Under the pieces are notes generated by a model, which was given only the letters and a program-made list of their open reading frames with translations, was not told where the DNA came from and made no database searches. DNA of 63,946 bases, the filler included, from Neolecta irregularis DAH-3 (Eukaryota): NCBI GenBank assembly GCA_001929475.1. It is 8 parts of 8 records of this genome, joined end to end, with 100 filler letters (N's around TTAATTAATTAA, not from the genome) between each part and the next. Parts side by side here need not be neighbours in the genome. Positions count along the whole stretch, not along the records: positions 1 to 23,814 come from LXFE01003415.1; 7 more parts are not named here. One strand, given 5' to 3'. Position numbers and translations under genes: made by a program. Below are positions 1,549-23,914 of this stretch, in pieces. Each line of letters starts with the position of its first letter. Position 1 is the stretch's first letter.

Positions 1549-3311
1549 ATGCTCCACCAGGTACCCAACTCTAATTGTACGCTGTCGAAACCGCCGCAGA
1601 TCGCACCGGCACAATTATACGAGACAGAAAGCGGCCGGTATGTGTTTTGCATGACTGCTAGAGCTCACCCACCAGACTTTTCCACGCCGGACGAATTGCC
1701 ATCTGCACAGGCATCTTGATCTTGTTCTGCCGCTAATACTCAGTCGGACTTCCCGCTCGAGGAAAAACGCACATCTCTGTCTCGCTCTGTCGGTATCTAC
1801 GATGGTATCGTCCGCGTTTCCGCGCTTCCCTGTATGACATTCCAGGCTCGGTGTCAAAACTGCAGTCTTCCATCTCGGCGACTATCGACGGGTCGTGTTA
1901 GAAGGCCAAGAATTACCTCCAGACTTCTTCTTCGTAAACACATCTGAGTCAACTACCAAACTCCGTGAAAATATCCGTGACCTATGCAGAAACGACATGA
2001 AAAAGTTTTATGAACAAGATAATGGACAAGTGGCCATTTACGATGCCGTAAATCCATCCGTCAAGGGACGCAAAAATCTAGTCAATTTCTTTCAAGCACA
2101 TAATGCCCAGGTTACCTTTTCTTCTTTTTTGTAAACTTGATAATTTACCAGGTTCTCTTCATCGAGTCGATTTGCGATAACGAGAAAATTATCGAAGCTA
2201 ATGTCCTCAGTGTCAAAATTTCATCACCAGATGTATATCTTTCTCTATTTTGGCGTCTGATTCGGCAAAGTATGTTGGTTGGCAACCTAAAGATGCGGTC
2301 AAAGATTACCTGCAACGGATTAATAACAAGATTCCTTATTTTGAGACAATCAAGGAGCCTGAATTGAATTATGTAAAGGTATACATCTTTATTTTGGTGT
2401 TTGCCAACTGTTTGTAGATAATTAATGTCAATGAACGGATGATTGTAAATAACCACCAAGCTGGATATCTTTGGGTAATTAATTCCTTGGTTGGGACGCG
2501 GTTACCCAATAGTCACGTATCGTTTTTTACTTGATGAATTTACATACTCAATATCGCAAACTCTACTTTGCGAGAGCAGGTAATTCTGAGGAGGAAAGCT
2601 CGTATAAAGCGGATACGCCACTAGACCTCCAGGGTCAGGAGTTTTCCCGTAGGTTAATGGCAACTCTGGTTGCGCACAGAAAAAAGGAACGACAAGATGC
2701 TTTATCCCAAGGCGACAATTCAGACGAACGAAGCCTTTCTGTTAGTATTTCTTTGTTGCTCCCAGTTGATTCTTAGATTTGGACATCTCCTAGAATAAAA
2801 AGCGTCCAAACAGCAGACGCTCTTAAAGAACAGGGATATAAAGTGCGCCAACGGCCGCAGTTAATGCCACTTAATCCCGGGGTACTGGAAATGATGACTC
2901 GCGAACAAGTCCGTGAAAAGTACCCTGAAGAAGTCGAGAAACATAAAAAGGACCCGTATCATCATCGTTTTCCCCGAGCCGAAGTAATTGCAATCATCAT
3001 CATCAAACCTGACAAATAGAGTTATCATGATGTTGCGGTTCGTCTTGAACCCGTGATTCTAGAAATGGAACGATCGTACGATGATTTACTGATAATTGCA
3101 CATGAAAGTGTATTGAGAGTATTATATGCATATTTGATGGGTGTCCCTGCAGATGTAATTACTATTCCCCAGATTAGCAAATTTTCGACTGACCAAGATA
3201 ATCTAGTCCATCCCGCAACTTGAATTTCCCCGAAATCAAATCATTGAAGTTATTCCGAACGCTTATCAAAATCAAGTGAAACATATATACATTGAAGGAG
3301 TCGACCCATGA
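1549..3311 (+). CDS. 6-phosphofructo-2-kinase/fructose-2,6-bisphosphatase family protein, YLR345W-like (about 12 exons)
   Basis: Spliced reading APAQLYETESGRLFHAGRIAICTVGLPARGKT (P-loop), QVAIYDAVN, SRIVFYLMNLH, HRFPRAESYHDV, IIAHESVLR; includes the GC-AG intron 1711-1743. Confidence 0.9.
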
Positions 3312-3361
3312 ATTCTCATTTGTATAGTCCAGTTACTTTTTATCTTTTTTGTTTTGCTTAA

Positions 3362-4374
3362 TTAATAATCGTCACGATGATGACGGTGTCGACTGCTTTT
3401 TTGTTGTTGTCTGGCTTCAGGAGAGTAATCTCTTTTGCGTTCGCGATGTTGTCGATGTGGGTCCTCTTGACGGGATGATTGATAGTAATCTTGGGATCTT
3501 GACTGTTTTTTCTCTCGAGTGTCGTCGTCTCGGGGTCGTTTCTCTCTATTTCCCTCGTCCCTGTGCCTTCTCTCTCGGCTATCGTCTCTATGCCTTCCCA
3601 CTCGGCTGTCACCATGGTGCATTCTCCCTCGATCGTCGTCCTTGTGTATTCTCTCCCGACTGTCATCTCGGTATCTTCTTCCTCGAGTGTCGTCCATATA
3701 CCTTCTGTCCTGATTGTCGTCGTCCCTTCTGCGTGAGCGTCTTTCTTTCTCGTCCCGTCGGGAATATTCAAGACCGCCTAATCCACCTCGAGTTCCATCT
3801 TGCCGTTCCGTCAATTCAGACTCGTCGATATTTTGTATGCGGTACCTGTGAAGTCCTCTACTTGTGATCAGTCATCTTGACGTCAACAGAATTACCCATG
3901 AAACCCCAATCCTTGGTTATCTTCTTCCTTCAACGTTTCATTTTCTAGGTCATCGTCTTTTTCTGTAGTCTTTATAGCTTTTGCAATTTCCTCTTGATCC
4001 ACGTTCCCTTCTTTCTTCCGGGTAACTTTAAACCCTCTACGAAATCAGTTTTGAGGGTCGCGAAATATGGATACAATGCTTCAGCGAGCGCATCTTCTTC
4101 CGCCTCCTTAATCTTTCGGATTTCTTCTCTTCGGATTTCTTCCTTGGAAAGATTGCCATCTTTTTTTTTATTAAACCATTCTAAATCCTTGCCTTTTTGC
4201 CAGCGTCCCATGGGTGCTTTGAGCTAGTCTCATCAACATTCGATAAACACAACTGGGGAATACCGAATGACCCAGGTAATTCTCACGATGTTTATCTTCT
4301 TTAATATCATCCCATTTGAATAATCCTTGGCCGCCGCGGTTCCCTCCCCGAACAGGCCCTTGTCGGAGATCCAT
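3362..4374 (-). CDS. MMTAG2/C1orf35-like protein (MMtag domain plus R/D/E/H-rich tail)
   Basis: [45 protein letters not shown] is the MMtag signature; 3 GT-AG introns. Confidence 0.88.
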
Positions 4375-4453
4375 TTGGTGGGTTGTAGTCAAAAGTCTCG
4401 CCAACTCGTGATGCAAAGATGTTTGTCTGCACCTCTCTACTTACAAACATGCT

Positions 4454-7299
4454 CTAATACTTTTCAGCCATGATCATGATCACCATTGAAGTCCACCCAG
4501 TGAATGGAAAGCTTCTTTGCCCTCTGCCAGTTTCTTGGTCATATTGTTCCCAGGCAAACCCCGTCCTCTCCCACTCATTAAAAATATTCTGAATCACGTT
4601 TTCCCTCAGTTCATTGTAAATCCTACTCGCAGTTTCGCGAAATGGCCCGTCTACGTCTATATAATTTTTCTTCAAACTCGACAAGGCGAGGAAATTAATG
4701 TTTATCCACACTGGACCTCTCCAGTAATTTTCACCCTGGGAAAAATGAGGGTCCTTTTTGGAGAGAGATCGCAGACCATAGGGGGACCAGATTTCCTCTG
4801 GATCGGACATGAATAACAAGATTGCCCCGAGATGGGGAGAATCTGCAGGCAAGAGGCCAAGAAGCATGGGAAAGAGTGAGAGGTAGCCTTTGTGACAAAC
4901 GAGGATGCTTTCTTCATATTCATCGATAGTTGAATCGCAATATGCCTGATCTTTTTCACTCCAATGAAGGTCTTACTATCAGCAAAAATATCCAGCAAGG
5001 ACAAATATTCAAACCATCGATATTTCGGATAATACTTTCTTCGATCTTTTTAAATTCCTCAACGTCGTCGCTTTGTCCCAATTTTTCAGCAATACGCATC
5101 AACATACGTGTAAACATTCCCATCCAGCTGATTAAATCGACGTGAAGTTCACCGATATGTGGGGGCTTGGCACGCGGGTAATCATCCAGGCCACTTGTAA
5201 AACAATGGTCTGGTGTTCTTCCACGCCATCGATATCCCTCCTTCAAACTAAACGCCTCTCGCTCCCAAGTTCTGATGTCGCCGATCTGTGATTTGCGGAA
5301 CCAATAGTAATGCTGTTTTAATTTTGGGTAGAGGGATTGCAAATATTCAGTAGCAAGGACGGGGTATTTGATATGTGCTGAAGATAGCGTCGACCATGGA
5401 ATCTGAGATTCCTCAAGAACTTGCTGACGTGAAGATTCAAACTCTTTTAGAAATCAGAACCCGATATAATGCAGGGAAATACCATATTCCATGGCCTGCT
5501 TTTCTTCTTTTTCTTTTTCTGCTTCATCGAGTTGTTGAAGGAATTGATTGACGGCCAAAATCAGCGTAGGCGGATTCGCATAATGGGGATATTGAATTTG
5601 AAATTCCGGCGGGACTTTACTTCTGGCTTCTTCACCCAGTATTTGTTCCCTCGCAATCCAACCATCTTGGTCCATCAATCCGAACCAACTCTTAATGATC
5701 TCCAAACTAATAATTAGGATTCAATGGTAATTCTACCCAAGGGAAAAAAACCTCAAATCAATGTCCCATAAACCAATAGGCAACAAATGGAATCCTTCAT
5801 CCCAATAAAACCCCCTTGGAAAGAACGGCCTCGAAGGAATACTCGTGAATAATTCCTTCTCTTCCGCTCGTTTACTGTCGCCTCCATCAACTCCTTCCCC
5901 AGCTCTTGCCTGCTCCCAAAATTCTTCTTCTTCGTCATCGTCAATAATCTTACCAACAAGGGAATCTCCGTGAAAATATCCGATTCCGCCAATTAGATTT
6001 GAAAAAAGAGATTGTGCGAATTGGCGGTAGGAAAGTGACGTATATGGTTCCTTCAACGGAAATGTTTTCTCAAAATGGTCTTTGAATGAGAAATCAAGAT
6101 GCTCAAGCTGGTTATCGAGGCGTTTAGCTATAAATTAAATCGAGACAGGTAGAGCATAACTTACAAGTCATACGTTGCTCGCCAAACGAGAGTGAACTGT
6201 ACAGAATATCAAACTAGTAAAAGCGATTAGTGGATCGGCAAGGAGAAAGAAGATACTTGAAACGAGCCCTGAAATGTCTTTTGTGTGAAGTGGAGATTAG
6301 CAAGGGGGTCTTTTTTGTTAGGAAGAGTGTATAGGATTGCAGCGGGCGGTAGTTTTTCCTTTCCATATCGTTTTTCAAGTCTTTGGAAGACAAAAGATAT
6401 CTCTGAGAATAAGAGATCTAATTTCTCAGCATGAGCAGCAGGAAAGCAGATACCCTTGGCCTTCCAAATGACGTTCCCGGGTACTTGTATTGAGGCAAAT
6501 TGCGTGTTTTGCAAGTTGACAAGCTTGGAACTGTCGTGTTGGGGTTGCGGGTACTTGTTACTATCAGGGCCTGTAGTGATTTCAAACGAAAAGTCTCCAA
6601 GTATAGGAGCCGATCCGACGATTTCCACGGGTCCCTCGATACCCTTTCTCATCAACTGGGATACCAACGCAAAGAGGCAACATTGGAGTTACCAGCAGAT
6701 GTAATTTCGAGATTTCCTAAGCCTTCTAGACCGGCGTAGAAAAACACAGTCGTTTTGCGATGGTGGGATAAAGGGTTAAAAAATATCGTACAGAGAGGGA
6801 ATACCATTATCTCGAGGTGTTCCACGGACCCTAAGCGCCCAATGGCCTCCTGAATTGGTTGGCAACCACATGAGTAAAGATGAGATACCTCTAGATCCAC
6901 CAGAAACTTTGACAAATTCAGTTTCAATATCAACACCCATTCCTACATCTCGGATCCTCTGTATTCCCCCTGTTCTCGGATCAAATTCGTCCCATCCATA
7001 GCCCAGGATATCATGACTCTGTTCACAAGTATGTCGAATGTCTAGGTCTGATCAATACGAGACTCAATCTGCACTGTACCGTTAATGCTTCCCATGTCGT
7101 CAACATTGGCCCACATTATTCCAGTCAACAGGCTTTTGGGAATTCGGGGGCGGAAGCCTGCGTATAACTGAGGGCGATAGGGACCCCATAGCAACGAATC
7201 GTTTTGTGCCTTGGCGACTGCAGACAACAATGACTCTGTGGACAAATGCTGCTGAGCTATCACAAGGGCCGAGAACAACAAAACCCAGATGCAACTCAT
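4454..7299 (-). CDS. CWH41: Mannosyl-oligosaccharide glucosidase I (GH63)
   Basis: SLLWGPYRPQLY, LFTSIPSRPFFPRGFYWDEGFH, GWIAREQILGEEARSKVP, SGLDDYPR, ENYWRGPVW, FTGWT; about 10 introns, one ending in AT (6804-6768). Confidence 0.95.
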
Positions 7300-7510
7300 C
7301 CGACTGGCAATCAATGATGGAAAGATGTCAAGTTTCTGTACCAGGTCTCACAAACGAAAATCGCGGGCTGGAACAAGAAAGTAAAAGGGCTAGAACATGC
7401 AGAGTATAGTTAATGTATACTGTGAAATATGAAATGTGTATAAAAGGCGGAGAAAGTGGGGGGTTGCTCAATTGTGTCTCGGTCCAAGAATCACCCAACA
7501 ATAACCGGTT

Positions 7511-8337
7511 ATGTCGGCGGACGCCCCCTCGACCCCACTATCCTCTCTCTGTACTCCATCCTCTTTTTTAGACTATAAAGACTCATCATATCCAGCCTTT
7601 ACACATATTTATTACAATCCTGAAGATCCTGTTTCTCTTGCCTTGGCATGGTTGTCGTTACTCCCGATGGTGCTTTTGGTCATTTACGCGACGTTGTGTT
7701 ATTCACGGCGCGAAGTAGAGTATTTTTTCGTAATGGGCGGACAATTGGTTTGCGAATGTTTGAACTGGGGATTAAAAAGACTGATTAAGGAGAGCCGGCC
7801 CAAGCGTATGAATTTCTTTTCCCTCGATTGTGTTGATTGGGCAGCGATGATAGGGAAGGGATATGGAATGCCAAGTAGCCATGCACAGTTTATGACGTAC
7901 ATTGCAGTTTACTTTTCGTTATGGATTTCGGTGAAGTATGCTAGCAACGTAGAAGGTTCAGGATGACAGGGGCAGGTCGTCCAGATCGGTTCCTCGCAAA
8001 GTCATCGATGTGTCGATTGCGCTAGTGGCTGCGGGGATGGTTTGTTGGTCACGGTATGATCTTTGTATGGCGGGCTGACAGGAGAATCTATCTCAGTTAC
8101 CATACACCCAAACAAGTAATTGCGGGAGCAACAGCAGGGGCACTGTTTGGATGGATGTGGTATATGGTAGTACAAGCAACTCGCAGTGTCGGGCTTGTGG
8201 ATTTGGTTCTCTCTCGTTCGTTGGCAAAGACGTTGCTCATTAAAGATATGATACAGCATCGGGATGCGATAAAGGAAGAGTGGCTTGAGTTTCAGAGATA
8301 TCGAAGATCTCAAAAGCCCAGGAATCTGCGGATATAG
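7511..8337 (+). CDS. CAX4: Dolichyldiphosphatase (PAP2 family)
   Basis: LKRLIKESRP, GYGMPSSHAQF and SRIYLSYHT PAP2 motifs with hydrophobic segments; 4 introns. Confidence 0.92.
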
Positions 8338-8704
8338 ACAAAATATCGGAATAATAGAATAGTACTAATATTCATTTGATGCAGGAAGACGATGTTGATC
8401 CAGGTCTTTGCTATGACGGCAGACCGCCTTTCGATTTTCTCTCCGTACTTGTTGGCAGGGTTGACGTCCAGGGTCCGAGGCAGAGATCCATAGTCGAACA
8501 AGATCCGTGGTGCGACCAGTGCAAATGCAAATGCACCCAGATTCGCCCTCTGTAAACAGGCAAATGTCGGAAAGTGACTTGCAGAGCACAGGCCTCAGGC
8601 ATGTACCACATCCCATTGTCCCTTAATTAACTACTATGACCAACCCTCCTAATTTGGTGCCATACCACCAAGTCACCCCGACCGCCTTTCCCACAACCTT
8701 CCTC

Positions 8705-9267
8705 ATGCCTCCGAAGCTCTCAAGTATTCTCTTCTTGCCGTCTTCTTCATCCTAATGTACAGCTACAATCTCGTCCACTAAGAAGGCCCAGGTCGCCAAA
8801 AAGGCTGCCCTCAAGGGTACTCATGCGAAAAAGGCCCTCAAGGTCCGCACTTCCACCACCTTTAGGCGCCCAAAGACTCTCCGTTTACCCAGAAAACCCA
8901 GAGTCGCTAGAAAAAGCGTCCAGCACCTGCCCCGTCTCGACCATTTCAGAATTCTCGTCTCCCCTCTCAACACAGAGTCCGCCATGAAAAAAATAGAAGA
9001 AAACAATACTCTAGTGTTCATCGTCGACATCAAGGCAAACAAGAGACAAATAAAAGAAGCTATCAAAAAGATGTATGATGTCGAGGCCCTCAGAATCAAT
9101 ACCCTCATCCGGTATCTCCCCATTCCACCCCCGGCTCACCCTAGGCCCGATGGAACCAAAAAGGCATACATAAAGCTCACTCCTGATGTAGACGCTCTCG
9201 ATGTGGCAAACAAGGAAAGTTTTCCTTCTCATTTCCATTATTGATCCTCTAGATTGGTTTTATTTAG
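8705..9267 (+). CDS. RPL25: 60S ribosomal protein uL23 (L25)
   Basis: [47 protein letters not shown]; the conserved end DVANKIGFI* requires a GA-AG intron at 9215-9252. Confidence 0.96.
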
Positions 9268-9467
9268 ATACATAACCTATATCATTCGCCATTTCCTTTC
9301 TCCTCCATTGTCATAAGATGTGACTTTCACCAAACATCAACCCTTGATATATCGCTATCTCCAGCAGTTCTATATTCCTATCCTTCCCTCCAATGCAATG
9401 CAAAAGAATTATCCCAGAGCCACAACAAATATCAATACACTCTCTTCATCGAATCCAGTTTTTCAAT

Positions 9468-23814: not shown

Positions 23815-23914
23815 NNNNNNNNNNNNNNNNNNNNNNNNNNNNNNNNNNNNNNNNNNNNTTAATTAATTAANNNNNNNNNNNNNNNNNNNNNNNNNNNNNN
23901 NNNNNNNNNNNNNN
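23815..23914. other. Artificial contig linker (N44-TTAATTAATTAA-N44); also at 27123-27222, 30114-30213, 31630-31729, 37779-37878, 49484-49583 and 61301-61400
   Basis: Identical 100-nt spacer with stops in all six frames, repeated 7 times. Confidence 0.97.

Follow-up and report, generated by a model that had tools for sequence, protein, structure and literature searches.

A probable GA-AG intron ahead of the last four codons of the uL23 (RPL25) gene in Neolecta irregularis

The last intron of a ribosomal protein gene in Neolecta irregularis raises the question of whether a spliceosome can remove an intron whose 5′ end reads GA instead of GT. The gene encodes uL23 (yeast name RPL25) and lies in the window, by which we mean the whole stretch of Neolecta irregularis DAH-3 DNA that was analysed (63,946 nt, filler included). 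The original prediction, made from the letters of this stretch, held that 38 nt near the end of the gene must be spliced from a GA donor if the protein is to end as uL23 does. We approached the question through the possible protein products, the ends of related proteins, the assembled contigs of public sequencing runs, the format of the surrounding introns and the corresponding position in relatives. On this evidence, uL23/RPL25 of Neolecta irregularis very probably has a GA-AG intron at 9215-9252 that is truly spliced out.

The gene is on the plus strand and has four exons, which run from an ATG at 8705 to a stop codon at 9265-9267 (Table 1). When its second exon was translated (8765-9109), it matched both PF03939 (Ribosomal_L23eN; E 3.5e-20, 72.3 bits, cutoff 27) and PF00276 (Ribosomal_L23; E 8.4e-13, 49 bits, cutoff 30.8), and the presence of the two domains identifies the product as uL23 (eukaryotic L23a/L25). 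A protein search with exon 2 yielded 4481 proteins at E <= 0.001 among 4507 candidates, and the best 120 of the 4481 were used. Exon 2 is 100% identical, over its full length, to P0001 (177 aa, 60S ribosomal protein L25, Neolecta irregularis DAH-3), and the next match among these best 120 has 77% identity. No second near-identical uL23 protein was found among the 120 matches listed, and the 90% cluster of P0001 has one member. The upstream neighbour on the plus strand is a PAP2-family gene (7505-8334), and the ORFs opposite the RPL25 locus gave no Pfam match. Farther along, between 21513 and 61585, the window contains 19 runs of N, made up of 10-N runs and pairs of 44-N runs spaced 12 letters apart (the first pair at 23815-23858 and 23871-23914). 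The window is stitched from several contigs, so features that span runs of N are not real neighbours.

Table 1. Parts of the uL23/RPL25 gene and sites in its third intron. Positions count along the window; a slash marks an exon-intron boundary; X1 and X2 are the two public runs described in the text.
Feature	Position	Strand	Description and basis
Exon 1	8705-8723	+	MPPKLS and first base of the next codon; X2 contig unbroken to 8723; start aligned with relatives
Intron 1	8724-8762	+	39 nt, GT..AG (GTATTC...CTAATGTACAG); absent from X2 contig (8723->8763)
Exon 2	8763-9111	+	Ribosomal_L23eN domain and start of Ribosomal_L23 domain (Pfam)
Intron 2	9112-9144	+	33 nt, GT..AG (GTATCT...GCTCACCCTAG); absent from X2 contig (9110->9144, cut +1)
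Exon 3	9145-9214	+	X2 contig coverage; translation; alignment with relatives
Intron 3	9215-9252	+	38 nt, GA..AG; missing in X2 contig, kept in X1 DNA contig
5′ splice-site region AAG/GAAAGT	9212-9220	+	7/9 match to CAG/GTAAGT despite A at +2
Competing GT, AAA/GTTTTC	9219-9224	+	Donor of GenBank model P0001; 3/9 consensus match
Candidate branch motif TTGAT	9241-9245	+	A at 9244, 8 nt before the last intron base; motif and spacing only
Exon 4, coding part ATT GGT TTT ATT TAG (IGFI and stop)	9253-9267	+	X2 contig runs from 9251/9253 past 9350

Following the codons GCA AAC AAG, the window reads GAAAGTTTTCC...ATTGATCCTCTAG and then ATT GGT TTT ATT TAG, which are exactly the letters that the original prediction had quoted for the intron and its flanks; read as an intron, the 38 nt are GAAAGT...TTGATCCTCTAG. 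We translated three models of this region and reproduced the three endings that had been foretold. Removing 9215-9252 by way of the GA donor gives a protein of 150 aa that ends in ANKIGFI, splicing from the GT at 9219 gives a protein of 154 aa that ends in ANKENWFYLDT, and leaving 9215-9252 unspliced gives a protein of 155 aa that ends in ESFPSHFHY, each followed by a stop. The further claim that the IGFI ending needs the GA donor also stands, because no GT-AG or GC-AG deletion yields IGFI. The same 38-nt deletion can otherwise be placed only at 9213-9250 (AG..CT) or 9214-9251 (GG..TA), and GA..AG is the only placement of the three that keeps both the G at +1 and the AG at the 3′ end. Around the GA donor, the nearest upstream GT is at 9203 (12 nt away) and the nearest downstream GT at 9219 (4 nt away); there is none 6 nt upstream.

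A conserved hydrophobic tetrapeptide at the C-terminus (of the IGFI, IGYV or LAIV type) is obtained under the GA-AG model only. Among the best 120 of the 4481 proteins, 51 end in IG[FYILV][IVL] and 25 in L[ASGNT][ILV][IVL]; the remaining 44, which include P0001, are mostly truncated or run into introns. No relative among the 120 best proteins checked has an ending that resembles ENWFYLDT or ESFPSHFHY, and the product of the GA-AG model aligns end to end with 9 relatives.

A search of public runs for this locus found two matching runs, both from one study, with all sampled words present in run X1 and 0.66 of the words in run X2. We compared both runs over 8650-9350 as assembled contigs (Logan), which drop rare variants and show the presence of a form, not its proportion. 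The DNA contig of X1 (word depth 420.5) covers the whole of 8650-9350 unspliced, with no other letters and with A at 9216; X1 is possibly the source of the assembly itself, in which case this A is not independent DNA evidence. X2 is represented by a single contig of 1916 nt (word depth 402.5) that matches in four pieces, with 0 other letters and 0 gaps, and all three introns are missing from it. At the third joint the contig skips 38 nt (9212->9251), and 2 letters fit on either side, so that the joint equals 9214^9253 with 9215-9252 removed. The three possible placements of this joint are AG..CT, GG..TA and GA..AG, and 0 of the 3 are GT-AG or GC-AG. The depth of X2 in the bin 9226-9249 is 0. 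No contig from X2 has a 9218^9253 joint or a retained intron; minor isoforms, to which contigs are blind, may exist.

Over all 591 exon and flank positions compared, the X2 contig and the window do not differ; the contig follows the locus without a difference past the coding region, into 8650-8704 on one side and 9268-9350 on the other, and overruns both ends of the compared stretch. The record of X2 is marked 'DNA?', as is that of X1, the organism codes of the two differ and neither run is recorded as RNA. Because the X2 contig is identical to the locus DNA, lacks the three introns and continues into both flanks, we infer that it is derived from transcripts. According to the Neolecta genome paper, sequencing covered both the DNA and the RNA of fruiting bodies (PMC5309816). 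Given an RNA origin of X2, its contig displays exact excision of the segment with the exons joined, and a GA 5′ end together with an AG 3′ end is found in the DNA, both in the window and in the X1 contig, which are perhaps not independent of each other. The data supports the original proposal that this spliceosome accepts A at +2, as one contig joins 9214 to 9253 (with a 2-nt slide) and the DNA contig has A at 9216.

A different interpretation of the same contigs would be that assembly or sequencing introduced the A at 9216 by mistake, or that alleles or strains differ there, and that the transcribed gene has an ordinary GT-AG intron. A spliced contig cannot show the letters of the intron that it has lost, the organism code of X2 is not that of X1 and the DNA support from the window and the X1 contig may amount to one read set, all of which would leave room for such an error or variant. 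However, the separate Logan assembly of X1 has the same letter, with no other letters at its word depth of 420.5, and the 591 identical positions of X2 speak against a diverged strain. We consider an error or a variant at 9216 to be improbable.

We compared the GA intron with a local set of 17 GT-AG introns, consisting of 2 in RPL25 and 15 from the exact mapping of P0121 (glucosidase I), a second annotated Neolecta irregularis protein, which was placed letter for letter on the minus strand (16 exons, 3365-7299) with one GT-AG solution per intron; these 15 of the 17 are known from annotation only. The lengths fall between 33 and 45 nt in 16 of the 17 introns (one has 79 nt), and the median is 39. 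Position +3 is A in 14/17, +4 is T in 13/17 and +5 is G in 2/17, with GTAAGT appearing once; the local donor type is GTATyy, not GTAAGT. The introns end in TAG (10), CAG (4) or AAG (3). In 11/17, a distance of 7-13 nt separates a yTrAy motif (for example CTGAT, TTGAT or CTAAT) from the 3′ end; TTGAT is found at 8-10 nt in 3/17 and CTGAT in 4. By its motifs, the GA intron fits this local format, having 38 nt, 68% pyrimidine, TTGAT 8 nt from its end and a terminal TAG, and the earlier remark that its length and its TTGAT match those of neighbouring introns is borne out by the counts. Scored against the textbook consensus CAG/GTAAGT, which is not the local one, the GA site reaches 7 matches out of 9, the 17 local introns range from 3 to 7 (one of them at 7) and the GT at 9219 has 3.

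We also searched the window for an excess of GA donors by joining ORFs. The first such census was uninformative (2,200-3,600 candidates per donor dinucleotide), its pairwise version was too noisy and a version with branch and YAG filters was still weak (61 candidates for GT versus 50-110 for other dinucleotides). When short candidates were counted by acceptor, GT had them at 28 of 82 acceptors versus 13-25 of 82 for the non-GT dinucleotides, with GA the lowest together with GG (13/82). Consequently, this crude census of the window detects no excess of GA donors, and nothing in it suggests a general tolerance of GA. An Rfam scan of the window gave 0 matches, and hence no snRNA gene.

The neighbouring gene P0121 has annotated GTTTTT and GTTTGA donors, and with GTT-type donors so close by, the GTTTTC at 9219 is weak, yet not implausible as a minor site. 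It is conceivable that a weak GA donor acts as a regulatory switch, whereby the use of GA (IGFI), the use of GT at 9219 (ENWFYLDT) and retention (ESFPSHFHY) tune the output of uL23; such a role would not be exclusive of GA-AG splicing. Each of the three products reaches a stop codon close by, and minor isoforms of this kind would go unseen in contigs. However, the GA-AG joint is the only one found for this intron in X2, which has a depth of 0 within the intron (bin 9226-9249), and neither alternative tail resembles the ending of any relative among the 120 best proteins. Moreover, the autoregulation of ribosomal proteins usually proceeds through a premature stop upstream of an exon junction (nonsense-mediated decay), whereas this is the last intron, located 12 coding nt before the stop, and its alternative products would probably contain no premature stop upstream of an exon junction. 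We assign a regulatory switch a low probability.

If the X2 contig were itself DNA, originating from a processed RPL25 retrocopy or from contaminating cDNA, it would offer no evidence of current GA splicing. The label 'DNA?' on X2 and the fact that neither run is recorded as RNA agree with such an origin, but a retrocopy elsewhere would diverge past the ends of the transcript, and the X2 contig is identical to the locus on both flanks within 8650-9350. In addition, no second copy is annotated among the 120 matches listed, where the next match stands at 77%, and a retrocopy, too, would be the trace of an earlier splicing event at GA-AG termini (or at GT-AG termini, if they were such at the time). 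A DNA origin of the X2 contig is very improbable. Two further candidates were rejected on their own grounds: template switching by reverse transcriptase as the main cause, since the microhomology is 2 nt only and the spliced form is the sole one assembled, and A>I editing, which would give GG and not GU.

To place the intron among relatives, metagenome contigs were scanned with exon 2; a relative is encoded in 336 of the 584 stretches that matched, and of these 336 the best 80 were taken. The C-terminal region was readable in 77 of the best 80 loci, with L022, L026 and L042 left out. Coding runs directly to the stop in 67 of the 77 readable loci (63 have KLxxV-type ends and 4 have IGFI), and an intron at the Neolecta position, in phase 0 after ANK and before IGFI and the stop, is found in 10 (L027, L032, L033, L038, L039, L044, L054, L057, L060 and L077; 7 distinct sequences). 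All 10 of these introns are GT..AG, with lengths of 42-59 nt and 5′ ends that include GTACG, GTATG, GTAAG, GTGAA and GTAGC. A blastx comparison of 7 of the 10 intron-bearing loci with the 120 proteins gave Cryptococcus, Tremella, Ramaria, Hydnum and Hebeloma as the best named matches, all of which are Basidiomycota. The uL23 genes of this basidiomycete-like group share with Neolecta the position and phase of the intron and its shortness (42-59 nt), and differ from it in that their introns begin with GT (10/10), whereas the Neolecta copy begins with GA.

U12-type introns, which the minor spliceosome removes, are marked by an [AG]TATCCTT 5′ box and a branch box like TCCTTAAC. Removal by that spliceosome, or by a route outside any spliceosome, would suit the non-canonical termini but is hardly credible: the 5′ end GAAAGTTTT is unlike that 5′ box, a direct reading of the intron finds no such branch box, 10 relatives have ordinary GT-AG introns at the orthologous position, and in length, base composition, distance of TTGAT from the end and final TAG the intron agrees with the 17 local U2-type introns. 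The simplest history, and the likely one, is that of an old intron at the phase-0 boundary between ANK and IGFI, shared with relatives, in which T at +2 became A in the Neolecta lineage. Alternatively, introns may have been gained in parallel at the shared position in Neolecta and its relatives.

The gene models of this family were affected in several ways. P0001 ends in ANKENWFYLDT and differs from the GA-AG model only by a 23-aa N-terminal extension and by the ENWFYLDT tail; the GenBank model therefore used the GT at 9219, and the tail arose because the predictor allowed GT donors only. The public P0001 model has a wrong C-terminus, and the transcript-like contig gives the conserved IGFI. 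At its other end, P0001 starts at an upstream in-frame ATG at 8636 (8636-8704), which adds 23 residues (MTNPPNLVPYHQVTPTAFPTTFL) that are present in 0 of the 9 aligned relatives. The X2 contig covers 8636-8704 within the compared stretch (from 8650); the true start depends on the start of transcription, and the ATG at 8705 fits the relatives.

Comparable observations were made on other models. The uL23 models P0059, P0084, P0094 and P0104 end in ANKV, ANKACYCC or ANKVGFD, and these odd ends are read-through into a GT-starting intron at the boundary between ANK and IGFI. Thus, the last 12-nt coding exon of uL23 is often missed by annotation in other fungi too. Intron 2 follows NTLIR, and 14 of the 120 best database proteins stop exactly at NTL[IV]R, several others ending slightly further on with odd residues; this suggests that many fungi have an intron at the position of intron 2 and that gene calls on metagenome contigs, where they ignore introns, are regularly cut short by it. 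Separately, the glucosidase I model P0121 has 1102 aa, with an extra PF10159 between its glucosidase domains, and its named relatives have about 720-885 aa; the model may combine more than one gene or extend too far.

Returning to the GA-AG intron of RPL25, we propose a mechanism in which intron 3 would be removed constitutively, and perhaps efficiently, as a U2-type spliceosomal intron with GA instead of GU at its 5′ end. The 5′ splice site would be recognised through its whole 5′ region and not through GU. The conserved ends of U1 and U6 are predicted to pair exceptionally well with the sequence AAG/GAAAGU, so that the flanks of the GA may compensate for the A at +2, and extended pairing at -2, -1, +1 and +3 to +6 would set the register at GA. 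With its short, stereotyped length, a putative branch A near 9244 and its TAG end, the intron would then complete both catalytic steps. The resulting mRNA would encode a normal uL23 of 150 aa that ends in ANKIGFI.

The same base change at the same 5′ splice-site position (+2 U>A) was made in the 1980s in introns of yeast and mammals; these mutants reportedly passed the first step of splicing and were blocked at the second, leaving 'dead-end' lariat intermediates. Unlike those mutants, the Neolecta gene has ligated exons in the X2 contig, and the second-step block would be either absent or overcome. A natural counterpart exists in humans, as Brackenridge et al. in 2003 are said to have described GA-AG introns in FGFR genes. 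These are reportedly U2-type introns with A at +2 that are efficiently spliced in otherwise normal genes, with the context of the GA held responsible. The Neolecta intron differs from them in its length of 38 nt, in its location in a fungal ribosomal protein gene and in having no GT 6 nt upstream.

Larger numbers of GA-AG introns are reported in passages of one paper for Eurytemora affinis and Oikopleura dioica, with thousands of cases, amounting in one species to 3.2% of supported splice sites, and a variant U1 is proposed there (PMC7072748). According to the same passages, the GA donors of these animals have an upstream AG and a downstream A, which is also the Neolecta context (AAG/GAA); in contrast to their thousands of cases, Neolecta presents a single one, with no excess of GA in the crude census of the window. 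Among fungi, RNA-seq of Fusarium graminearum revealed 0.31% of introns with termini other than GT-AG and GC-AG; GA-AG is listed in this group, part of which was verified by Sanger sequencing (PMC3577648). Fusarium graminearum is, like Neolecta, a fungus with GA-AG splicing, although it belongs to another lineage (Pezizomycotina) and has introns of ordinary fungal length. The original prediction called GA donors very rare in fungi, in keeping with passages of both papers (PMC7072748, PMC3577648). GA-AG introns are already known elsewhere, and the one in Neolecta RPL25 is one more, not a new kind of system. Our literature search found no paper on this intron or on any non-canonical Neolecta intron, and the strings intron, splice, RNA-seq and transcriptom do not appear in the main text of the Neolecta genome paper; its supplements may hold details of gene models.

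A more far-reaching view, which we regard as rather unlikely, is that U at +2 is perhaps not strictly needed in Neolecta, with its introns of 33-45 nt and its degenerate GTATyy donor, when the 5′ region pairs well with U1 and U6. RPL25 could then be the first visible case of hidden GA-AG or other non-GT introns that have been masked by GT-AG-only prediction, possibly with a variant U1 or U6, or its intron could be a control point with a slow second step in an essential, highly expressed gene.

The Neolecta intron adds, from a fungus and from an essential ribosomal protein gene, an example in which exons are ligated despite a natural A at +2. Because relatives carry the same intron with GT, it allows a clean evolutionary comparison. 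As a compact natural substrate of 38 nt, it lends itself to studying how A at +2 is tolerated and what allows the second step to take place. It also speaks for calling splice junctions without regard to motif in fungi whose introns are very short.
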